A stretch of DNA of 64,000 bases, from sequence record PZ445517.1; one strand, given 5' to 3'. The DNA is from a phage. A model generated the notes under the pieces. That model worked only from the letters and a program-made list of their open reading frames with translations. It searched no databases and had not been told where the DNA came from. A program made the translations under genes and the position numbers. Every line of letters starts with the position of its first letter. Position 1 is the first letter of the stretch. Below are positions 10,603-64,000 of the stretch, in pieces.

Positions 10603-11781
10603 TTAAAAATATTTTTTAAAACTCATCATAACTTTATCATCAACATCATTATCAATCTGTGCTACAAGGTAAGATGACAGTTCTACTTCTTGCGGCGCGG
10701 ATTGAACATTATCAGAATTAAGGTATTCACGAATCCAAGGATATGGATGTTTAACCGGAGCATCGGTAATTGGGCATGGAAGACCGCACTGTTTCATACG
10801 AGATACAGTTAAGTAATCAATAAAGCTCCACATGCTATTTGTATTTAATCCAGGAACATCACCATCTTTAAATAAATGAACTGCCCAATCTTTTTCTTGG
10901 CGGTTAACTTCCATGAAAATATCAACTGCTTCTTGTTCACACTCTTGGGCAATTTTAACCCATTCATCACCATCAATGCCAAGTTGAAGTTGACGAATAA
11001 TATATTGTGTACCTTTAAGATGAAGTTGCTCATCACGCGCAATGAACTTCATAATCTTGGCATTACCTTCCATAATTTCCATGTTCTTATGGAAGTTAAA
11101 GGTACAGGCGAAAGATACGTAAAAACGAATAGCTTCCAATGCATTGATTACATGAAGGCAAAGATAAAGAGATTTCATTAGTGCTCGTTTAGCTTCGGCT
11201 TCTTGTTTAATAGCTCGATTTAAACGAAAATCAGCATCAGGAGATTCTTTAGCTAGTTCTACAAATTCTTTAGCATTTTCCCATTCACGGGTCTTCTTAA
11301 GAACATCATCGTAATAGCGACCAATGGACTCAGCGCGTTTCATAATATCTTCATCTAATACAATCTCATCAAATACCTTTGACGGATCAGTATAAAGATT
11401 TCGCATGATATGGGTATATGAACGGCTGTGAATAGTTTCACTAAAAGTCCATGTAGCAACCCATGTATCAAGACTTGGGTCTGAAATTAACGACATAAGT
11501 ACAGCAGACGGTGCACGACCCTGAATGCTATCTAGAAGTGATTGATACTTCAGGTTATTAGTAAAAATATCTTGCTGATACTGAGGAAGCTTGTTAAATT
11601 GTGCAGCATCCATCATTAAGTTTACTTCTTCAGGACGCCAGAAAAATGATAATTGCTTTTCGGTTAAATCTTCAAAAACTTTATGGCGTTGAATATCATA
11701 ACGCGCAATACCAAGACCTGAACCGAAGAACATAGGTTCTTTTAAAACATCAACTGGATTTGTATTAAAAACTGTAGACAT
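10603..11781 (-). CDS. nrdB: ribonucleotide reductase small subunit (class Ia), continuous
   Basis: 392-aa diiron-tyrosyl radical protein; single continuous ORF with no intron interruption. Confidence 0.9.
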   Translation of the reverse strand: MSTVFNTNPVDVLKEPMFFGSGLGIARYDIQRHKVFEDLTEKQLSFFWRPEEVNLMMDAAQFNKLPQYQQDIFTNNLKYQSLLDSIQGRAPSAVLMSLISDPSLDTWVATWTFSETIHSRSYTHIMRNLYTDPSKVFDEIVLDEDIMKRAESIGRYYDDVLKKTREWENAKEFVELAKESPDADFRLNRAIKQEAEAKRALMKSLYLCLHVINALEAIRFYVSFACTFNFHKNMEIMEGNAKIMKFIARDEQLHLKGTQYIIRQLQLGIDGDEWVKIAQECEQEAVDIFMEVNRQEKDWAVHLFKDGDVPGLNTNSMWSFIDYLTVSRMKQCGLPCPITDAPVKHPYPWIREYLNSDNVQSAPQEVELSSYLVAQIDNDVDDKVMMSFKKYF

Positions 11782-11816: not shown

Positions 11817-12608
11817 TCACATATTGTGTATAAGCACTTCAGTCTGAAATGATGCACCTTTCTTTTGCTTCCTATACATGGTTTCAAAATATTCAATTTT
11901 GAAATTATTAGAAAGGGCCCAATCTTTTAAAATATAATTATTAATATCGTCTGATAGATTATTAGTGATAATAAATTTAGACTTCGATTGTTTAATTTTG
12001 TCTAATAATTCTAATTCATCCTTTTCTTCCCAGCCTGAATATTTAAATTTAGTAGAAAGATACGGCGGGTCAATGAATAAATTTTTGTTTTCAAAATCCA
12101 AATCTCTGAATGATTTATTACTAAATGTAAATCTGTGCTGTCTATTTTTAAATTCAGAAAATTTATCCTGTTGAGACTTATTAAAAGAAGTTCTGGAATA
12201 CTTGGCTCTATTGGCGAAAGCCGCGTTATAATTCCCATTACTAGAAAATCGGATTAACGAACTGAATGAAAATAAATGTAGAACATAAAGATATAGTCCG
12301 TTTTTGGTTTTATCGTATTCTTTTGACAGATTATAAAAAGGTGCTGAATCTTTGTCATTCAAATTAAAGTCTTCAATAATTTGAACTATATCATTAATTG
12401 AAGATGATTTCATCTTGTTATACATATCTATAAGAGGAGTATTAATATCATTACATATAACATCTCTCTGACAATTCATAGAAAATCCAAGACCACCACA
12501 AAAAGCGTCCAAAACAGGCTTATCGTCAAAGCGGTTTGAAAATTGTCTAATAAATGGCATATACTTATGTTTTGCACCTGGATATGTTATGGCAGGTAGG
12601 TCTTTCAT
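11817..12608 (-). CDS. Dam-family (D12-class) N6-adenine DNA methyltransferase-like protein
   Basis: 263 aa with YPGAKHK, FCGGLG (AdoMet motif I) and FIDPPY (motif IV) in Dam-like order; visibly AT-rich, N/K/S/F-rich coding; sits between nrdA and nrdB. Confidence 0.7.
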   Translation of the reverse strand: MKDLPAITYPGAKHKYMPFIRQFSNRFDDKPVLDAFCGGLGFSMNCQRDVICNDINTPLIDMYNKMKSSSINDIVQIIEDFNLNDKDSAPFYNLSKEYDKTKNGLYLYVLHLFSFSSLIRFSSNGNYNAAFANRAKYSRTSFNKSQQDKFSEFKNRQHRFTFSNKSFRDLDFENKNLFIDPPYLSTKFKYSGWEEKDELELLDKIKQSKSKFIITNNLSDDINNYILKDWALSNNFKIEYFETMYRKQKKGASFQTEVLIHNM

Positions 12609-15468: not shown

Positions 15469-16329
15469 TTACACCGCCATTTTTCCTTTCAAGACACCAT
15501 GGGACTGATAATCTTTAAGAACGAAATCTCGCGATGTCATATATTCAGTTAACCAATACATTTGAGTTTCAGTATCGCATTGGCTGAATCCATTAGGCCA
15601 ATTAATACTGAGTTTGCACAGGTCCATAGGAGTTCTATTTAATATCTCTTTGCATTGCTCAATATGGTTAGAATAAATGTGTGTATTGCCACCCGAAAAT
15701 ACCAAATCGCCTGGAACTAGTTCACACATGTCAGCAACAATATGTAAGAGAGCAGCATAGCTCGCGATGTTAAATGGAAGACCGAGGAAAACATCTACCG
15801 AGCGTTGATACCATTGGAGGTCAAGGTATCCGTTACGAACATTAAACTGATAGAACATGTGACAAGGCGGTAATGCCATTTGCTTGAGTTCAGCTGGATT
15901 CCACGCCGACACAATTTGTCGCCTATCGTTTGGAAATGTTTTAATACGATTAACAACTTCTACAATTTGGTCTACACCGCCAAAATCACGCCATTGTTTT
16001 CCGTAAATTGGACCAAGTTCACCACTATGATAACCTAGGTCTTTGGCCTGATTTTCGTAGTTTTCATCCCAAATCGTTTTTCCAGCAATTAAGGATCCAT
16101 GAGTACGTTTACGTAGATCATTTACGTTAGTACTTCCTGATAAGAACCACAATAACTCAGAAATACACGCATTCCAGGCGAGCTTCTTAGTTGTTACTGC
16201 AGGAAAACCTTTACTTAAATCCCAGCGTAATTTAGTACCGAACAAAGCAATTGTTCCTGTGCCCGTTCGGTCATCGGTTTCATAGCCATTTTCAAAAATG
16301 TCTTTAATTAAATCTTGGTATTGTTTCAT
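15469..16329 (-). CDS. td: thymidylate synthase, continuous (no intron)
   Basis: 286 aa, MKQYQDLIKDIFENGYETDDRTGTGT...; full-length protein in one ORF. Confidence 0.95.
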   Translation of the reverse strand: MKQYQDLIKDIFENGYETDDRTGTGTIALFGTKLRWDLSKGFPAVTTKKLAWNACISELLWFLSGSTNVNDLRKRTHGSLIAGKTIWDENYENQAKDLGYHSGELGPIYGKQWRDFGGVDQIVEVVNRIKTFPNDRRQIVSAWNPAELKQMALPPCHMFYQFNVRNGYLDLQWYQRSVDVFLGLPFNIASYAALLHIVADMCELVPGDLVFSGGNTHIYSNHIEQCKEILNRTPMDLCKLSINWPNGFSQCDTETQMYWLTEYMTSRDFVLKDYQSHGVLKGKMAV

Positions 16330-18858: not shown

Positions 18859-18901
18859 ATTATTTTCCTCTTTAATTATCAGCAGTATTGCCGATAGTTG
18901 T

Positions 18902-18931
18902 ATAGTACCACAGTATGCTTTGGTTGTAAAC
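18902..18931 (-). promoter_or_regulatory. phage early promoter (conserved cassette copy)
   Basis: GGTTTACAACCAAAGCATACTGTGGTACTATACAACTATC on minus strand; near-identical to copy at 35388-35417. Confidence 0.6.
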
Positions 18932-18953
18932 CGTTTTGTGAAAAAAATTTTGA

Positions 18954-18981
18954 AATAAAAAAGGGGACCCTAGAGGTCCCC
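18954..18981 (-). terminator. intrinsic terminator downstream of gene 32
   Basis: GGGGACC-UCUA-GGGUCCCC hairpin followed by U-run on minus transcript. Confidence 0.65.
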
Positions 18982-34710: not shown

Positions 34711-35346
34711 TCACAGTTCAGATGCTACAGTGATTACAGCTTCAATGTTTTCTGCCGAGCGTTTAATGTCAAGATACACATTACCGTTTTTAGCGATTTT
34801 ACATGACATTCCGATGTCAGTAAATTTCTGAATATGATGTTCCATCATTTTGTATCCAAAAATTCGCATATTTCCGTTGTTGTTAATTTCAAAATTACGA
34901 ATTCCGTGAGTGCGTTTTTCTAAAATAGCGAGATAGTTACTGCGATAAGTTTCAACCTTTTTAAGAACAAATCCATTTTCATCTAAAAGTTTTAACATGA
35001 GGTCTTTATCTTCTTCCATATCTGAAGTAATCTCGCGAGCTTTACGAGTTGCTCGTTTTTTCAGTAGTTCCGGAGCATTTTCCTGTGCATATAAAGTTGC
35101 TGCATTTGAAATAATATCCTGAGCTTCACCTGTAATGATTAATCCATCACCAGATTTCTCCACTAGGCCTTTTTTAATCAATACCCCAATATTACTATTA
35201 ACTACTGCGTTACCTAAATCTGGATGTACCTCACGAACTTCTGCAGCTGTAATGAAATCTTTCTTAGCAATGGTAATTAAAATCGCAGCAGTTTTTTCAT
35301 TCAGAACATCGTTAGAAGCTTTGATGATGTAAGTTACTTTAGACAT
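34711..35346 (-). CDS. motA: MotA activator of middle transcription
   Basis: 211 aa; early promoter cassette directly upstream (35388-35417); matches T4 MotA. Confidence 0.9.
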   Translation of the reverse strand: MSKVTYIIKASNDVLNEKTAAILITIAKKDFITAAEVREVHPDLGNAVVNSNIGVLIKKGLVEKSGDGLIITGEAQDIISNAATLYAQENAPELLKKRATRKAREITSDMEEDKDLMLKLLDENGFVLKKVETYRSNYLAILEKRTHGIRNFEINNNGNMRIFGYKMMEHHIQKFTDIGMSCKIAKNGNVYLDIKRSAENIEAVITVASEL

Positions 35347-35387
35347 TTTCTAATCTCCGTAATTCTGTATCAGTAGTTGATAGTTGT

Positions 35388-35417
35388 ATAGTACCACAGT
35401 ATGCTTTGGTTGTAAAC
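35388..35417 (-). promoter_or_regulatory. phage early promoter for motA (conserved cassette copy)
   Basis: Same cassette as 18902-18931, including conserved transcribed leader ACAACTATCAACTACTGATAC. Confidence 0.6.
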
Positions 35418-35442
35418 CTTTTTGTGAAAAAATTTTTGGAAT

Positions 35443-35468
35443 AAAAAAGGGAGAGCCGAGGCTCTCCC
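35443..35468 (-). terminator. intrinsic terminator downstream of gene 52
   Basis: GGGAGAGCC-UCGG-CUCUCCC hairpin + U-run. Confidence 0.6.
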
Positions 35469-35473
35469 TAAAA

Positions 35474-35623
35474 TTAATGCATGACTGTGATAACTGTCAT
35501 GATAACACGTTGAATGCCGAACGCAAGAAGACCTCCTGCTACAGCTGGAACAACACCTAAACCTGTCAGTAAAATGCTACCAGATACTAATGCCGCGCTT
35601 GTAATACCTATAAATGGACTCAT
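35474..35623 (-). CDS. small hydrophobic peptide (49 aa)
   Basis: Decoded by hand (MSPFIGITSAALVSGSILLTGLGVVPAVAGG...); ATGA overlap with gene 52 stop; not in ORF track (<60 aa). Confidence 0.35.
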   Translation of the reverse strand: MSPFIGITSAALVSGSILLTGLGVVPAVAGGLLAFGIQRVIMTVITVMH

Positions 35624-36948
35624 TTGATTTCCTCTAAATCTTTGGTGTATTCTGTAACTACATCAGTAGTTTTCCAATATTCGTTTTCTTCTTTCTTAGC
35701 TTTAGCTTCTTCAGCAAGTTTCTTTGCTTCATCGGAAGTCATATGAAAAATATTCATTCCGACTAGTTTATCAACATAAGAAGAATACATATCAATTTTA
35801 GAAAGTTCTTCGGTTAGTTCTTTGCGAGTTTTACCTTGCACAACAATTTCACCTGAAATTACTTTCTTAATGAAATGCGCCTTGGCAAAGGCTAAACGAA
35901 ATGCTGATTCAGTTTCTTTGATTTTGTTATCAATTCGTTTTTGGACATAAGTTTTACGAACTTCAACAAAGTCTTTAATTAAATCAACTACGTTATCGTA
36001 AACTTGCAGCTTTCCTTTCTCATTAATGACTGTAATATTCTGAGAACGACGCTCAATCAACCCGAAGTCTTTCATAATTTTTGCATGGCGTTCTTCTTCG
36101 TTATCACTCAAAGAATATTCTTTGCGGAATTTAATTTTAAAGCCAAAGCCATGCTCACCGCAAGCATCATCCCATGTAATGAAGCCTTTATCTTCAAGCG
36201 GATCTAAGATTTTACTCACGTAAGTTTCACGATCATACTTATACGGAATCTCAGTGATATTCATTTGAGTTCGTGAAGTAAACTTGTACGTTCCACGAAT
36301 TTCATATTGACCGTCAATTTCAACGACTTCACCACGAAATTCTGGGAATTCTACCTTCGGTTTAGTTACTTTCTTTCCTTGAAGAGCTTGTAGTACAGCT
36401 TTCTTGACAGAAGAAACACTATGAGGAAGAATGTAAGTTGCATAACCAGTTGCAATACCGGAAACACCATTAAGAAGAACAGTAGGAATAATAGGCAAAT
36501 AGAAAGCAGGAGGAATGTGTTCTTTATCTTGATGTACCGGAGCATATTCAGTATCTTTATATACGCTATAGAAATTTTTACTTACACGAGCAAAAATATA
36601 ACGACTTGCTGCTGCTTTTTGAACGGTACGAGAACCAAAGTTTCCTTGACCATCTAACAAAGGAAAGTTATTATTCCAAGTGTTAGCCATCAAAGCCCCC
36701 GCATCTTGTGCAGAGTTTTCGCCATGATGATATCCAAGGTCAGCTACACCACCTGCAATAGAAGCGAGTTTGTGAAACTTATCTTTATTTCCCCGTGCCA
36801 AATCAAGAGCTCGAGCGATAACAAATCGTTGAACTGGCTTAAATCCATCAATCATATTTGGAATAGCACGGTTTTCAACCGTGTACATAGCATAAGCCAA
36901 TGCTTCATTATCAATGATACTTTTTAAATCGCGATTATTCAGTTGCAT
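35620..36948 (-). CDS. 52: DNA topoisomerase II medium subunit gp52 (GyrA-like)
   Basis: 442 aa with GyrA-type N-terminal domain; matches T4 gp52. Confidence 0.9.
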   Translation of the reverse strand: MQLNNRDLKSIIDNEALAYAMYTVENRAIPNMIDGFKPVQRFVIARALDLARGNKDKFHKLASIAGGVADLGYHHGENSAQDAGALMANTWNNNFPLLDGQGNFGSRTVQKAAASRYIFARVSKNFYSVYKDTEYAPVHQDKEHIPPAFYLPIIPTVLLNGVSGIATGYATYILPHSVSSVKKAVLQALQGKKVTKPKVEFPEFRGEVVEIDGQYEIRGTYKFTSRTQMNITEIPYKYDRETYVSKILDPLEDKGFITWDDACGEHGFGFKIKFRKEYSLSDNEEERHAKIMKDFGLIERRSQNITVINEKGKLQVYDNVVDLIKDFVEVRKTYVQKRIDNKIKETESAFRLAFAKAHFIKKVISGEIVVQGKTRKELTEELSKIDMYSSYVDKLVGMNIFHMTSDEAKKLAEEAKAKKEENEYWKTTDVVTEYTKDLEEIK

Positions 36949-38396: not shown

Positions 38397-38496
38397 AGTA
38401 AGCGTTTAATACATCAATCATTAAAACGATTGGGAATATACTCAAAACTACTAGTATTATAACTACATTCCATATAGCTTTAACAATCTTTTTCAT
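38383..38496 (-). CDS. small membrane peptide (37 aa)
   Basis: ATG at 38496 with GGAGGAA RBS; the longer track ORF (to 38631) would run across early promoter 38525-38554, so the short form is preferred. Confidence 0.4.
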   Translation of the reverse strand: MKKIVKAIWNVVIILVVLSIFPIVLMIDVLNAYFGFM

Positions 38497-38524
38497 TTTC
38501 TGTTCCTCCGTAGTTGATAGTTGT

Positions 38525-38554
38525 ATAGTACCACAGAGGAACAGTCTTGTAAAC
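38525..38554 (-). promoter_or_regulatory. phage early promoter (conserved cassette copy)
   Basis: GTTTACAAGACTGTTCCTCTGTGGTACTATACAACTATCAACTAC. Confidence 0.55.
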
Positions 38555-38739
38555 AACTTTTTTAAAAATATTCGTAATAAATGTGAATACCAATCACTAC
38601 TGCCGAAACTTGCGCAACCCACCACGCACAAGCAATAAGTACAGAATTAAAAATTTTCATAATAACCTCATCACAAAAGTAAATGTTAAACAAATTAATG
38701 GAATACTAATTAACCAAACAAAACACCACCATAATGAAC

Positions 38740-56194: not shown

Positions 56195-56713
56195 TTAATA
56201 ACCTCGGTCTTGACGAGCGAAGTTTTCAGCATTTTTCAGATAATAAAGTTTAAAGATTTCTTCAGCCGTAAGACCGAGACCTTGGAACATGTTCAGAACG
56301 AAATGAAGAATATCAATCATTTCAAATTTAATTTCCAACTGGTCTTGTGGAGACAAATCAGTAATTAGAGTTTCACGACGTTCACCATGTTGAGCTTTCC
56401 AAGGCTTCCATACAGCAGATGCATCTTTTTCGCCATTGCTCATACCGCCAAGAGAAGTCAGAAGTTCACGGAATTCATCGTCAATATAATCTTTCTGATT
56501 ACGCAGCCAATCAACAACTTCACCAGCAGTAGCCAAATCATCAGGATGACGGTTATATTCAGGTTTATCTTTAGCTAAACGAACTTGCAGAGATTTCTGC
56601 ATATCAAGCATAACTTGCAGTGGGTCTTTTTCATCACCGAGAATATCCCAGTATTCATTTTGAGCTTTATCGGCGCCTTCGATCAGTTGCGAACATTCAT
56701 TAAAGTATGCCAT
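56195..56713 (-). CDS. 56: dCTPase/dUTPase gp56
   Basis: 172 aa from ATG at 56713 (MAYFNECSQLIEG...), AAGGA RBS; MazG-like fold. Confidence 0.85.
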   Translation of the reverse strand: MAYFNECSQLIEGADKAQNEYWDILGDEKDPLQVMLDMQKSLQVRLAKDKPEYNRHPDDLATAGEVVDWLRNQKDYIDDEFRELLTSLGGMSNGEKDASAVWKPWKAQHGERRETLITDLSPQDQLEIKFEMIDILHFVLNMFQGLGLTAEEIFKLYYLKNAENFARQDRGY

Positions 56714-58177: not shown

Positions 58178-58804
58178 TTAACCTCTATTCATAAAAGCAT
58201 TAAAAATTTGGTCATCAATAGAAACATTCACTTTAGACTGTTTTTCTGATGGTAATTCATATCCACATATTACAATTTTATGATCAATATCAAAATACAC
58301 AGAAGCGATATGATTAATGATGTTTTCAGTAAAGTCTAAATCAACATCAATATCTTTTTGACCACAACCCAAAGGATAAATAATGCGAGTAATTCGATTA
58401 TCTTTAACAAAGATTCCACCGACATACTCTGTGCTGCGTTTAAAGTCTACACGCCGACGAAATGAAAAATATTCAGGCTCTTTATGAGCTCGGCTCATAG
58501 GACACAACGAGTAACTAGAATAAGAGATGTCAAATCCTACGCCTTCGATATGAGCCAAAGTGTCATGATTAAACCAATTATAATCGTACGCCAAATCCAT
58601 TAGATTATAATATGTAAAAGGCATCGGATTAACATCATTGGTCACAAGCATGTAATTAGCAACTGCTATAATTTCATTATTTTTAACAAATACAAATCTT
58701 GATTGATGCGAATGACCTGGACCCGCGTTTTCACGATTAATGATATAACACTGGGCACCTTTGTATTTGTACGTGTCTTTGCACTTGTGCATTTGATAAA
58801 GCAT
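58178..58804 (-). CDS. hypothetical protein (61.x position)
   Basis: 208-aa ORF. Confidence 0.45.
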   Translation of the reverse strand: MLYQMHKCKDTYKYKGAQCYIINRENAGPGHSHQSRFVFVKNNEIIAVANYMLVTNDVNPMPFTYYNLMDLAYDYNWFNHDTLAHIEGVGFDISYSSYSLCPMSRAHKEPEYFSFRRRVDFKRSTEYVGGIFVKDNRITRIIYPLGCGQKDIDVDLDFTENIINHIASVYFDIDHKIVICGYELPSEKQSKVNVSIDDQIFNAFMNRG

Positions 58805-59097
58805 TATTCACCTACCACTTCAGCGATGATATTTTTATTATTGAAGTTTTTATCGCAATACAGAACGTAATTATACTGCATTACACCACCAGACTTAAGC
58901 TGTTTTTGTACTTCAGCTTTCATTTCAGGGCGATCGCGCTCAACGATATTCATAATATCTGCTTCAATCTGAGTTTCAACCTCAGTCTGATCTGCAGTCA
59001 TAGACCATTCGCACAAATCTTTATCATAACCTGCCATAGCAGGCTGAGCAGCACAAGAAGCTAAAGCAAAAATTGCAGCAAAAACAAATTTTTTCAT
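58804..59097 (-). CDS. sp: Spackle periplasmic protein (superinfection exclusion / lysozyme inhibitor)
   Basis: 97 aa with signal peptide (MKKFVFAAIFALASCAAQPAMA); position between 61 and 41. Confidence 0.75.
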   Translation of the reverse strand: MKKFVFAAIFALASCAAQPAMAGYDKDLCEWSMTADQTEVETQIEADIMNIVERDRPEMKAEVQKQLKSGGVMQYNYVLYCDKNFNNKNIIAEVVGE

Positions 59098-59157
59098 GAT
59101 AATCTCCTCAGTAGTTTATGTTTATATAGTATCTCAATTTCTAACAAAAGTAAACAC

Positions 59158-59460
59158 TTATTTTAAAACTTCTGCATAATCGCATGTTACAAACTGTTTC
59201 TCTAACTTGACGATTTTACGAAAGTATCTTTTGCATTGACGAATCTGTCGCTTCGTAGGGCGCACAGCAAACTTAATAAATTCCACTCGACCAAATGGAG
59301 GACTTTCTTCTGCTGGAATATCTAACACCAATTCCCACGTATCCGCAATAAGTGCTTTGAATTGTGTATTTTTCCTGATGTTATACGGAGTAGGTTTAAA
59401 TAAAACCGTATGCATATTACCCTCGCCAATCAGATTCAAAAACTTTCTTATCATTAACAA
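59158..59460 (-). CDS. hypothetical protein (61.4 position)
   Basis: 100-aa ORF. Confidence 0.4.
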   Translation of the reverse strand: MLMIRKFLNLIGEGNMHTVLFKPTPYNIRKNTQFKALIADTWELVLDIPAEESPPFGRVEFIKFAVRPTKRQIRQCKRYFRKIVKLEKQFVTCDYAEVLK

Positions 59461-59608
59461 ATGCTTTAACTAAAGCTTTATTAACTTCAGCAAGTTGTGA
59501 AGTGACCCATAGAATTTGATCTTTATCAGACACATCCATAGTGATTTCTTTGGTAAACATATTACCATTTTCAAACCAGCCAATAAAAACAATCTTTGCT
59601 AATTCCAT
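59417..59608 (-). CDS. small protein at 61.5 position (possible Dmd-like antitoxin)
   Basis: 63 aa directly upstream of gene 41; own early promoter 59638-59667. Called on size and position only. Confidence 0.35.
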   Translation of the reverse strand: MELAKIVFIGWFENGNMFTKEITMDVSDKDQILWVTSQLAEVNKALVKAFVNDKKVFESDWRG

Positions 59609-59637
59609 AACAATCTCCCCATTTAACCAACAAGACT

Positions 59638-59667
59638 ATTATACCATAGTCTTGTCAGCTTGTAAAC
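59638..59667 (-). promoter_or_regulatory. phage early promoter upstream of 61.5-position ORF
   Basis: GTTTACA + 17 bp + TGGTATAAT; -35 overlaps gene 41 stop. Confidence 0.5.
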
Positions 59668-61094
59668 TAAAATTTTAATTCGTTTGCTAAAGCATCTAAC
59701 TGGGCTCGAGTAGATTCATTTCTTTGATAGCGATTCTGCTCAGCTTGTATCTGTTGTGAACCTGCTACTTCGTTAACTTCAGTTGGAGTAGAATCTTGTT
59801 CAATTTCTACCCATTTCTGATTTCCTTTTTGAACACCCATCAAAAACTTATTCCATTTATTCTTATCACCATATCGTGATTTGATTTGCTTAATGAGTTG
59901 TTGTTCAGCAGCTGCTAACTCCTCGGTTTCAATGACCGCAAGCATAAAATCGGCTGTTGCTGGAAGACCGGCGGATTCTGCAATATCGCTCATGTTAACA
60001 TCAGAAGAATCCCAAGCTTGCTTACCAACCTGTGCTGCAGTCCAAAGAACAGTTTCGGTTTCAACAGCCAGAGCACGCAATTCCTCTGCAATAGCTTTAA
60101 CAGTTGTGTAACTATTTTCTGAGTAAACTCTGATGCGGCAAGATTTACAAATACCTAGATAATCGACAATAATGATCGTTGGAACAAAATTCTTCTTGAG
60201 CTTCAATTCGTTTAAAAGCGATCGAAATGTATTAGCGTCTGCTCCACCAGTAGGATACTGTTTAACGATTAAACGGCCGAGAGTAGATTTCTCACGCCAT
60301 TTTTCCATTTTTCCTTTATATTCAGCGTAAGAAATATGCCCATCATCAATGTCATCAAGAGAAACATCGAGCATATTAGCGTCAATACGCTTAGCACAGA
60401 CTTCTTCTGCCATTTCCATTGAAATGTAAAGAACATTATGACCGAGCTGTAAATAATCTGCTGCCAATGAACACAGACCTAATGACTTACCAACGTTAAC
60501 ACCAGCCATTAAAACGTTCAGTGTTCCAGTTTCAGCTCCGCCTTTAGTAATTTTATTTAGAATTTTGAGTTTAAATGGAACCTTACGAGCTTTATTCATA
60601 TAAGATAGCCAACGTGCTTCATAGTCATCCATCCAATCATGACCAACGTAGCTATCAAATGAAATTGATAATGCTTGGCGCATGATGTCAGGAATAGCAC
60701 CAACATCCGGCATTTTCTTATTTCGTTTTTCCGGAGGAAGTTCAGCATTAGTTTGAATTTCAATTATTTTAGACGTAGCATTAAACATCGCCCTTTGCTG
60801 AACATATTTTTCTGTTTCTTTTACTAACCAGCTGTGGTCTTCCGGAGAATCGGCTAGTTTTGAAATAAGTGTTTTTACACCAGAATATTCTGTTTCAGTA
60901 AATGAACTATTTTCTAATGCAACATTTAACGCATTAATGGATGGAACGCTATGGTACTCATTAACATGAGATTTAATTAATTTGAACGTATTTTTAGCTG
61001 GACCACTTTCAAAATATTCTGAATCCATATATGGCCAAACTTTTGAAAAATAAGCTTGATCAAATATGAGATGAGAAAGAATAATTTCTACCAC
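59667..61094 (-). CDS. 41: replicative DNA helicase gp41 (DnaB-like)
   Basis: 475 aa with Walker A GVNVGKS and RecA-like core. Confidence 0.95.
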   Translation of the reverse strand: MVEIILSHLIFDQAYFSKVWPYMDSEYFESGPAKNTFKLIKSHVNEYHSVPSINALNVALENSSFTETEYSGVKTLISKLADSPEDHSWLVKETEKYVQQRAMFNATSKIIEIQTNAELPPEKRNKKMPDVGAIPDIMRQALSISFDSYVGHDWMDDYEARWLSYMNKARKVPFKLKILNKITKGGAETGTLNVLMAGVNVGKSLGLCSLAADYLQLGHNVLYISMEMAEEVCAKRIDANMLDVSLDDIDDGHISYAEYKGKMEKWREKSTLGRLIVKQYPTGGADANTFRSLLNELKLKKNFVPTIIIVDYLGICKSCRIRVYSENSYTTVKAIAEELRALAVETETVLWTAAQVGKQAWDSSDVNMSDIAESAGLPATADFMLAVIETEELAAAEQQLIKQIKSRYGDKNKWNKFLMGVQKGNQKWVEIEQDSTPTEVNEVAGSQQIQAEQNRYQRNESTRAQLDALANELKF

Positions 61095-61103
61095 ACTTAC
61101 TCC

Positions 61104-61460
61104 TTAAAAGAATTTAAATTTTTTCTTTGACCTTTTATTAAATGCATCTTGTAGTTGCATTGTAATACATTTTTCTACATGAGGAGCTAACTCAGCTTTT
61201 CTTTCTTGGTCAAGAACAGCAAAGTCCATTACGACTTTTCCATCAACCCAATCTAATTTTGTCACATACACAATGTGTGTAGAACCATCTTCTAGTTTAA
61301 TGACAATCTCCTGGATAACATTTTCCATGGCAGATTTAATTATCTTAAGGGATTCATTAAAAAGACGTTCTTTTCTTTCTTCTTCCCCCTCCGAAGAGGG
61401 GGATTCGTCGATAATTTCTAAATCTAAATCATCTTTATTCATTAAATTCTTCCATATCAC
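61104..61460 (-). CDS. 40: gp40 head assembly protein
   Basis: 118-aa ORF between uvsX and 41; start approximate. Confidence 0.6.
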   Translation of the reverse strand: MIWKNLMNKDDLDLEIIDESPSSEGEEERKERLFNESLKIIKSAMENVIQEIVIKLEDGSTHIVYVTKLDWVDGKVVMDFAVLDQERKAELAPHVEKCITMQLQDAFNKRSKKKFKFF

Positions 61461-62616
61461 TTAACTGATCTAGGTCAGTTTCTAAATCAGCTGCTGATTT
61501 ACTTTTACTTTCTGGAGATTTAAATTTTTCAACCTTTGAGTTAATCAATTCATCAACTTCAGCTTCAACAATTTCATTGCTATCAATAGCACCTAACTGA
61601 TAAGCACGTTTAATAGCATCTCGGAATGGTTGATGCTTAAATAAAGGACCCCAGAATGTAGTGCAGTTGGTATCTTTTGCACGCCAAGATTTTTCTTCGC
61701 GAATCATCTCACCGGTTTCTTCATCAAGAAATTCACGGGCATACCAGCCATTTTTAGGTTTTACCACGAATCCTAATTCTAGAGCCATATCTAACAATCC
61801 AGAATAAGGATCGATACCACCGTCAAATTTAACATCAATAAAGAATTTACTTTTTTCTTTAACGGTACGAGATTTTTCTACATTTAGAACAAATTGATAC
61901 CCCTGAAGATCAGAACCATCTTTAATCTGGCGTTTACCGATAATGAATACGGTATCAGCCGAATACATTACGCCTGTACCACCTGTCATCACGGTTTTAC
62001 TAAACATTTCAATTGTTTCAATTGTATGGTTAACCGCAACACATGGAATATTTTTAATGCTAAAATAAGGAGTAACAATACGGAATAATGACTTCAGTGA
62101 TTTAGCACGAGTCATATCTGCCACAGATTTTTCATTCAAGGCATCTTCCGTTTCTTTCTTAGAAGCCATATTACCGATTGAGTCGATGAATACAATAACC
62201 TTTTCACCACGCTCAATAGCTTCAAGCTGATTCACCATGTCAATTTTCAGTTGTTCAACTGACTGGATTGGTGTATGAATTACTCGTTCCGGGTCAACTC
62301 CCATGGATCGCAAATAAGCTGGAGTAATACCAAATTCGCTATCATAGAATAGACAAACCGCGTCAGGATATTTGTTCAAATATGCCGCAACCATAGTCAA
62401 AGACATATTTGATTTAAAGTGTTTAGAAGGCCCTGCGAAAATAGTTAAACCAGACTGCATACCGCCATCAATCGCACCAGAAATAGCAATATTAAGCATT
62501 GGAATTTTTGTACGAATTACATCCTTTTCATTAAAGAATTTAGATGTAGTCAGTTCAGCAGTCATTTTAGAAGTGGAAGCTTTAATCAAACGGGATTTTA
62601 AATCTGCAATAGACAT
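61435..62616 (-). CDS. uvsX: UvsX recombinase (RecA-like)
   Basis: 393 aa with Walker A GPSKHFKS and acidic C-terminus; matches recalled T4 UvsX. Confidence 0.95.
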   Translation of the reverse strand: MSIADLKSRLIKASTSKMTAELTTSKFFNEKDVIRTKIPMLNIAISGAIDGGMQSGLTIFAGPSKHFKSNMSLTMVAAYLNKYPDAVCLFYDSEFGITPAYLRSMGVDPERVIHTPIQSVEQLKIDMVNQLEAIERGEKVIVFIDSIGNMASKKETEDALNEKSVADMTRAKSLKSLFRIVTPYFSIKNIPCVAVNHTIETIEMFSKTVMTGGTGVMYSADTVFIIGKRQIKDGSDLQGYQFVLNVEKSRTVKEKSKFFIDVKFDGGIDPYSGLLDMALELGFVVKPKNGWYAREFLDEETGEMIREEKSWRAKDTNCTTFWGPLFKHQPFRDAIKRAYQLGAIDSNEIVEAEVDELINSKVEKFKSPESKSKSAADLETDLDQLSDMEEFNE

Positions 62617-62693
62617 TCATTTTTTCCATAGGCATCATTATATTTTCCTCACTGGTTAAAGATAGAGTAATTATAACACAATAAATTTAGGCA

Positions 62694-63542
62694 TTAATCA
62701 ACTGCTATCGGATGAATAGCATTAAACTTATGAAATGCTTCTGATTTTTCTTTACGCGAAACACACATGCGAAGAACCTTTAATGGCTCGTCTTCTTCAC
62801 CCAACGATTTTCGTTTTTCAATATTCGATGTTTTCCAACGAGCTTGCTCTGGAAACTCTCTATTGATTTGCTCAAGCGCTCTATTATGTTTAGAATTACT
62901 ACGAATTGAACTGCACCCGCCAGGAGCTTGTGCTTTTCCAGATACAACCAGATATTTGAACAAGGCCAAATGCGGATAACCTTGATTAATTAAATTGAGA
63001 AATGCATACATATCTTCGCATAAATCAATTTTTCCATACCCAATTTGTTCTGTCGTAAGTTTTCCGAGGTCATACCATGTATTCGTGAATCCATATGAAT
63101 TTTCACGATAATTACCCCAAGATGAAGTAATTTTAAAAATTGGTAAACGAGCATGGCCATGATAATATCCGCAATCCATGGCATCCTCGACATATTGAAT
63201 CAATTCATAGAACTGTTCACGAGTTAATTGATTGACTTTATCTACACAACGACGATCATCTCTTTTTCGCATTGAACTCATACGAATAGTAGTATCATCG
63301 TCAATCATCCAAATTCGTTGACCTGCATACATATCAGTAATTGCTTTACGAGTTCCAGCAATTCCATTTACATCATCAGGAATAGTTATAATTTTAGCTC
63401 TAGACCCATAGGCATCATAATAAGCTTTTTCTTCGTGTTCACGTACTACAATATGTGGTTCATAATCAGTCGGAAACATATCAAGGGCAGAAACTGCCCC
63501 TACACGTTGATAGCTTGGAATTACGAATTGAATCATTTCCAC
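62694..63542 (-). CDS. GT-A fold glycosyltransferase in bgt slot (beta-glucosyl-HMC alpha-glucosyltransferase-like)
   Basis: 282 aa; N-terminal VIPSYQR and DxD motif (MIDDD); between uvsX and 42 where T4 has the unrelated 351-aa beta-gt. Confidence 0.55.
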   Translation of the reverse strand: MEMIQFVIPSYQRVGAVSALDMFPTDYEPHIVVREHEEKAYYDAYGSRAKIITIPDDVNGIAGTRKAITDMYAGQRIWMIDDDTTIRMSSMRKRDDRRCVDKVNQLTREQFYELIQYVEDAMDCGYYHGHARLPIFKITSSWGNYRENSYGFTNTWYDLGKLTTEQIGYGKIDLCEDMYAFLNLINQGYPHLALFKYLVVSGKAQAPGGCSSIRSNSKHNRALEQINREFPEQARWKTSNIEKRKSLGEEDEPLKVLRMCVSRKEKSEAFHKFNAIHPIAVD

Positions 63543-64000
63543 TCACCGTTATAATCTTTTTTCACAATATGAGTTTCGCCAGTATTCCACCAATGATCAA
63601 CCAAGTAAAAATGACGAGAATATACATGAAGACTTCCAACATTCCATATAATAGAACCTGCTTTATACTGACGAGTTGAATCGCCTGCATTCAAATCAGA
63701 TACTAATTTATCTAATACGTATTTTTGCCATGCATAATCATTACGGAATCCGAAGACCACGTCATTTGAGCGCATGCTTACTACTGCATTGACTTTCTTA
63801 TCACGAATCAGGTACTGTACTGTATTAGTACACATGAAATCTGACATACCATCTTTATTGTAGTCAAATTGCATGGATGGACGAGTATAAATCATGATAC
63901 CACGTCGAGAATCAGGATTTTGACCAAGTTCAGCTAAACACATATCATACTGGGCATAGTTATCTTCTGACCAAATAGCCCAACCATAATTCGAGTTAAT
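63533..64000 (-). CDS. 42: dCMP hydroxymethylase gp42 (3' portion; 5' end beyond window)
   Basis: Open frame continues to window edge; C-terminal sequence matches recalled T4 gp42. Confidence 0.9.
   Translation of the reverse strand: MNSNYGWAIWSEDNYAQYDMCLAELGQNPDSRRGIMIYTRPSMQFDYNKDGMSDFMCTNTVQYLIRDKKVNAVVSMRSNDVVFGFRNDYAWQKYVLDKLVSDLNAGDSTRQYKAGSIIWNVGSLHVYSRHFYLVDHWWNTGETHIVKKDYNGEWK

Follow-up and report, generated by a model that had tools for sequence, protein, structure and literature searches.

Here, we analysed a window of 64,000 nucleotides of phage DNA with a focus on the gene that lies between uvsX and gene 42, where an earlier note on this DNA had described an ORF of 282 aa. The ORF list of the window has this reading frame exactly there, on the minus strand (62694..63542), opened by an in-frame GTG (63540..63542). 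The length is accurate for such a mechanical ORF call, but it is probably not that of the protein. All annotated orthologs examined begin at an ATG, which in the window lies two codons past the GTG at 63536 and corresponds to the annotated start in T4_ev240, T2 and Solly (280 aa each) and likewise in T6, where the protein has 279 aa. For this reason, we doubt that the GTG is the real start, and the coding sequence of ba-gt (beta-glucosyl-HMC-alpha-glucosyltransferase, also g-gt or TAGT) is likely to occupy 62694..63536 on the minus strand, stop included, and to specify 280 rather than 282 residues. Its ATG overlaps the TGA stop codon of gene 42 in an ATGA read from the sequence (63533..63536, minus strand), which suggests that the two genes may be translationally coupled; this type of overlap is the usual arrangement among translationally coupled T4 early genes.

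Alignment to T4 uvsX and T4 gp42 confirmed both flanks named in the earlier note. Upstream, the 3' part of gene 42, which encodes dCMP hydroxymethylase, spans 63533..64000 on the minus strand, where it is cut by the window end, and was recovered by tblastn with residues 92-245 of T4 gp42 (95% protein identity, E 1e-100). Downstream, a spacer of 77 nt (62617..62693, minus strand) separates the ba-gt stop from the start of uvsX (61435..62616, minus strand, 393 aa), which aligns to T4 uvsX DNA up to 62604. This spacer holds no terminator-like site, a promoter and terminator scan around ba-gt gave counts no higher than those in shuffled sequence, and neither Rfam nor a tRNA scan detected any RNA gene across the 64 kb. 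A single terminator-like hairpin (63502-63482) was given no weight as a signal, as it falls inside the ba-gt coding sequence and the scan counts did not exceed those of shuffled sequence.

Homology to T4 at the DNA level, with flanks that are just 92-94% identical, is interrupted by ba-gt itself: the blastn alignment with the T4 loci breaks off at 62604 in uvsX and is taken up again only at 63551, close to the end of gene 42, which leaves a segment of 946 bp (62605..63550) without DNA homology to T4. The T4 counterpart of this segment measures 1941 bp and carries the homing endonuclease gene segA together with b-gt, whereas the window segment carries ba-gt only. The proposal that the gene replaces T4 beta-gt therefore holds as to position, the slot being that of T4 segA and beta-gt. 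As a population statement, however, it has the polarity reversed because the ba-gt allele is common and T4 beta-gt is rare; DNA with at least 90% identity to ba-gt is present in 475 phage records, compared with 29 records for T4-type b-gt, mostly T4 isolates. Thus, ba-gt is the majority allele among Tequatrovirus and the gene that T4-like coliphages usually carry at this site, and the combination of alpha-GT and TAGT has likewise been reported as common (NAR 2026 paper).

Relative to LR597657.1, 'Escherichia phage T4_ev240', the window (positions 1-64000) is circularly permuted and runs across the linear ends of the record (junction 40664/40665), with window 1-40664 matching record positions 126291-166954 except for one mismatch and window 58694-64000 being 100% identical. 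The alpha-gt gene of this matching record is located at 34727-35929, about 12 kb beyond the window; when T4 alpha-gt, beta-gt and segA served as tblastn queries against the whole 64-kb window, no match was better than E = 1.4. Despite its T4_ev240 name, the phage is without T4 segA, b-gt and segF (tblastn, 64-kb window), and there is no segF beside gene 56. As a practical point, the record bears the name 'T4_ev240', yet its glucosylation pattern is not that of T4.

The assignment of the window protein to the T2/T6-type enzymes, which had been proposed from the sequence, is borne out by several lines of comparison. The protein is identical to that of T2 at 278 of 280 positions and to that of T6 at 276 of 280, it matches PHROG 842 'beta-glucosyl-HMC-alpha-glucosyltransferase' over residues 2-277 (E 2.2e-89), and it scores 38.9 bits against the TET-associated glycosyltransferase (TAGT) model of Pfam, PF20691, over profile positions 2-205 of 205, where the curated gathering cut-off is 27.5 bits. 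TAGT was the sole Pfam match, none of the GT2 models scoring at E <= 1, and no NCBIfam family matched ba-gt. Like the T2 and T6 genes, it lies between gene 42 and uvsX, and it shares with them the alpha-gt partner and both family matches. It differs from the T2 record by point substitutions only (H11 and S251 in T2), whereas the T6 record has N40, G55 and H106 and a DDD run that is shorter by one D. The reference for the T2/T6 beta-glucosyl-HMC-alpha-glucosyltransferase is reportedly the work of Winkler & Ruger 1993 (cited in PMC11946311). The gene is thus a second DNA glucosyltransferase of the T2/T6 type that is already known, and what the analysis provides is a correct annotation and not a discovery. 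The RefSeq protein for T6 ba-gt is YP_010067197.1 (PMC13216743).

The GT-A fold type suggested for the protein is also supported, since the predicted structure matches a GT-A fold and the DxD motif is conserved, and an AlphaFold3 analysis of the T6 enzyme likewise gave a GT-A fold (PMC13216743). In our model, residues 1-80 have pLDDT values of 79-93, with the DDD coming after strand E74-79, and the loops 131-150 and 203-211 are of low confidence. A phmmer search against all PDB chains at E <= 10 retrieved two chance matches only, to a pyridoxamine-phosphate-oxidase-like protein, and no glucosyltransferase, and therefore no solved structure is related to the protein by sequence. GT2-family enzymes with a GT-A fold, such as TarP (6H1J), SpsA (1H7L) and BcsA (4P00), share only 6-16% sequence identity with it and differ in that the acceptor of the window enzyme is a sugar on DNA. 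Both motifs singled out earlier are encoded on the minus strand, VIPSYQR at residues 5-11 (63504..63524) and the DDD of MIDDD at residues 79-81 (63294..63302), and I6, P7, S8, Y9 and R11 as well as D79, D80 and D81 do not vary among 9 aligned family members, whose BLASTP identity to the window protein is 28-77%. VIPSYQR is predicted to form the first strand and the following loop in the nucleotide-sugar-binding half of the protein, and the DDD, as a DxD motif for metal and UDP-sugar binding, would hold a divalent metal and the diphosphate of UDP. In the mechanism we propose, a conserved acidic residue would serve as the base, and the candidate is D175, invariant in the family alignment and part of E174-D175 in CEDMYAF (63012..63017, minus strand), a pair that we take to be comparable to GT2-type 'ED' motifs; by this analogy the enzyme would be an inverting GT-A transferase with D175 as its probable catalytic base.

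By the same comparisons, the view that the protein is not T4 beta-gt was upheld. BLASTP of the window protein against T4 beta-gt yielded fragments of 8 residues only (E = 2.2), PF09198, the family of T4 beta-gt, did not match at E <= 1, and the protein does not have the two-Rossmann-domain GT-B fold. The BLASTP comparison with the T2/T6 enzymes that the earlier note had recommended gave 99% identity, and homology to T4 beta-gt was not found. Solved structures are available for T4 beta-gt and alpha-gt (PDB 1JG7 and 1XV5; PMC13216743). The two enzymes resemble each other in their genomic slot beside gene 42, in the UDP-glucose donor, in the beta linkage and in acting on hmC DNA after replication. 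However, T4 beta-gt is a GT-B protein of 351 aa that belongs to PF09198 and takes bare hmC as acceptor, whereas the window enzyme is a GT-A protein of 280 aa, unrelated in sequence, with alpha-glucosyl-hmC as its predicted acceptor. The shared slot could be read to mean that the window enzyme is a functional analogue which beta-glucosylates bare hmC at sites left by alpha-gt, but we regard this as extremely improbable, given that neither sequence nor fold is related to T4 beta-gt, that about 1/3 of bare 5-hmdC persists, without detectable beta-glucosyl-mdC, in phages that encode the identical protein (PMC13390438), and that alpha-glucosyl-hmC is what remains in T6 deleted for ba-gt (PMC11078745). 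A direct hmC beta-glucosyltransferase was rejected, both for the missing relationship to T4 beta-gt and for the absence of beta-glucosyl-mdC from Solly DNA.

[quoted passage not shown] In the proposed pathway, gp56 and gp42 would supply hydroxymethyl-dCTP for incorporation into phage DNA, and alpha-gt would then place an alpha-linked glucose on about 3/4 of the hmC residues; adjacent hmC residues are reported not to be modifiable by alpha-gt (PMC6024577; bioRxiv 10.64898/2026.02.25.707755). ba-gt, with UDP-glucose of the host as donor, would attach the second glucose to the first, and the linkage of the product known from previous work is beta-1,6, that is, gentiobiose (PMC6024577; PMC11078745). 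A beta-1,6 product from a UDP-alpha-glucose donor implies inversion of the anomeric configuration. A homolog of gene 56, the dCTPase gene of the hmC pathway, is located at 56198..56713 on the minus strand (tblastn with T4 gp56, E 2e-84); at 74% identity to T4 gp56 it is far more diverged than the adjacent genes.

Support for this product comes from vB_Eco_Solly (OY720021.1), to which both the alpha-gt of T4_ev240 (400 of 400 residues) and the window ba-gt (280 of 280) are identical. HPLC/MS of Solly DNA revealed about 1/3 5-hmdC and about 2/3 alpha-5-gentiobiosylmethyl-dC over a low background of alpha-glucosyl-mdC, without detection of beta-glucosyl-mdC, and the second glucose was credited to the TAGT gene that is syntenic with T4 b-gt (PMC13390438). 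The ba-gt protein is also 100% identical in the BASEL phages FriedrichZschokke, KarlGJung and FriedrichMiescher; across Solly and these phages the proteins are without difference and the DNA is 98% identical. These measurements likewise bear on the identity of the sugar, since Mosigvirus, which are related T4-like phages, carry mono- and di-arabinosylated cytosine derivatives (PMC13390438) and TAGT homologs exist in phages that have no homolog of alpha-gt or beta-gt (PMC13216743), so that transfer of a sugar other than glucose, such as arabinose or arabinobiose, might be considered. We judge the likelihood of this to be close to negligible, as gentiobiose is the measured product in phages with 100% identical enzymes (PMC13390438) and the genome has the gp42 hmC pathway and not the 5-hydroxy-dCMP synthase pathway of Mosigvirus. 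On these two grounds, an arabinosyltransferase was rejected. The present comparisons thus show what the gene is, its synteny, the class of its fold and that the matching record contains alpha-gt. The DNA product and the phenotype of deletion were shown in published work on proteins that are the same or almost the same, and the catalytic residues and the amount of product in the window phage are inferred.

How much of the alpha-glucosyl-hmC is converted by the enzyme is a separate matter, because T2 has only about 5% gentiobiosyl-hmC compared with 72% in T6 (PMC6024577) and its protein is 99% identical to that of the window, and near-identity alone therefore does not set the product level. This low level in T2 would be the precedent for a weak allele in the window phage that leaves mostly mono-alpha-glucosyl-hmC with a few percent of gentiobiosyl-hmC. 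We nevertheless consider a weak allele very unlikely, since R11, invariant in the family and replaced by H in the T2 record, is retained in the window protein, and since both glucosyltransferases are those of Solly with its roughly 2/3 gentiobiosyl-mdC. Given that both transferases are 100% identical to those of Solly, a level like that of T6 or Solly is the best prediction, and most alpha-glucosyl-hmC of the window phage would be converted, with an expected outcome of about 2/3 gentiobiosyl-hmC and about 1/3 bare hmC.

The T2 and T6 genes are themselves natural variants at invariant positions. ba-gt of T2 (AP018813, L003:4283-5125) has H at R11, and ba-gt of T6 (AP018814, L004:4135-4974) encodes 279 aa, the invariant DDD being shortened to DD; the gentiobiosyl-hmC content of the two phages differs about 14-fold. 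It is conceivable, though we would put it forward as a tentative and rather doubtful idea, that such point variants of ba-gt set the extent of gentiobiosylation. If they outweigh the effects of expression level and of the alpha-gt partner, the long-known difference between T2 and T6 would be accounted for by R11H, and the window allele would represent the fully active consensus form; the idea bears more on these relatives than on the window.

The biological relevance of the allele lies in the type of adduct, as ba-gt decides whether hmC carries one glucose or the two-glucose adduct gentiobiose, and this in turn affects the sensitivity of the phage to Brig1, which is specific for alpha-glucosyl-hmC, to BapA/Brig3 and to type IV restriction enzymes such as GmrSD and BrxU. 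T6 without ba-gt contains alpha-glucosyl-hmC only, and its DNA becomes a substrate of Brig1 and the phage more sensitive to Brig1 (PMC11078745). Similarly, DNA from T6 without g-gt is a substrate for the BapA deglucosylase and wild-type T6 DNA is not (bioRxiv 10.64898/2026.02.25.707755). Conversion of alpha-glucosyl-hmC in the window phage would accordingly be expected to render its mature DNA a poor substrate for the Brig1 glycosylase and for BapA, the deglucosylase that acts together with Brig3, while sensitivity to enzymes of the GmrSD/BrxU type stays (PMC13390438; PMC13216743). For T4-like phages in therapy, knowledge of the allele is useful in predicting host range. These relationships have already been established in published work on identical or near-identical proteins, and the value of the present result is that of a correct annotation.

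Several further features of the window deserve mention. Between nrdB and nrdA, on the minus strand (11817-12608), lies a gene for a D12-class N6-adenine DNA methyltransferase of 263 aa (PF02086, 84.6 bits) that is 33% identical to T4 Dam and annotated as 'hypothetical protein' in the matching record. There was no other Dam-like match in the window and none at the position of dam in T4, beside gene 56. The nrdB (10603-11781) and td (15469-16329) genes are annotated as uninterrupted coding sequences, and Rfam detected no group I intron across the 64 kb; the td and nrdB genes of T4 contain introns. A direct repeat of 73 nt occurs at 18893-18965 and 35379-35451 (95.9% identity), with both copies intergenic, one downstream of gene 32 and the other upstream of motA. 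Read on the minus strand, both copies are preceded by a G+C-rich hairpin with a T-run, and both hold an early-promoter-like GTTTACA-17 nt-TACTAT. Finally, a stretch of 98 nt near the small ORFs on the rIIB side (38485-38582) is 90% identical to L003:6908-7004 of T2, and its T2 counterpart, which lies between imm and gene 43, marks it as another short dispersed repeat.
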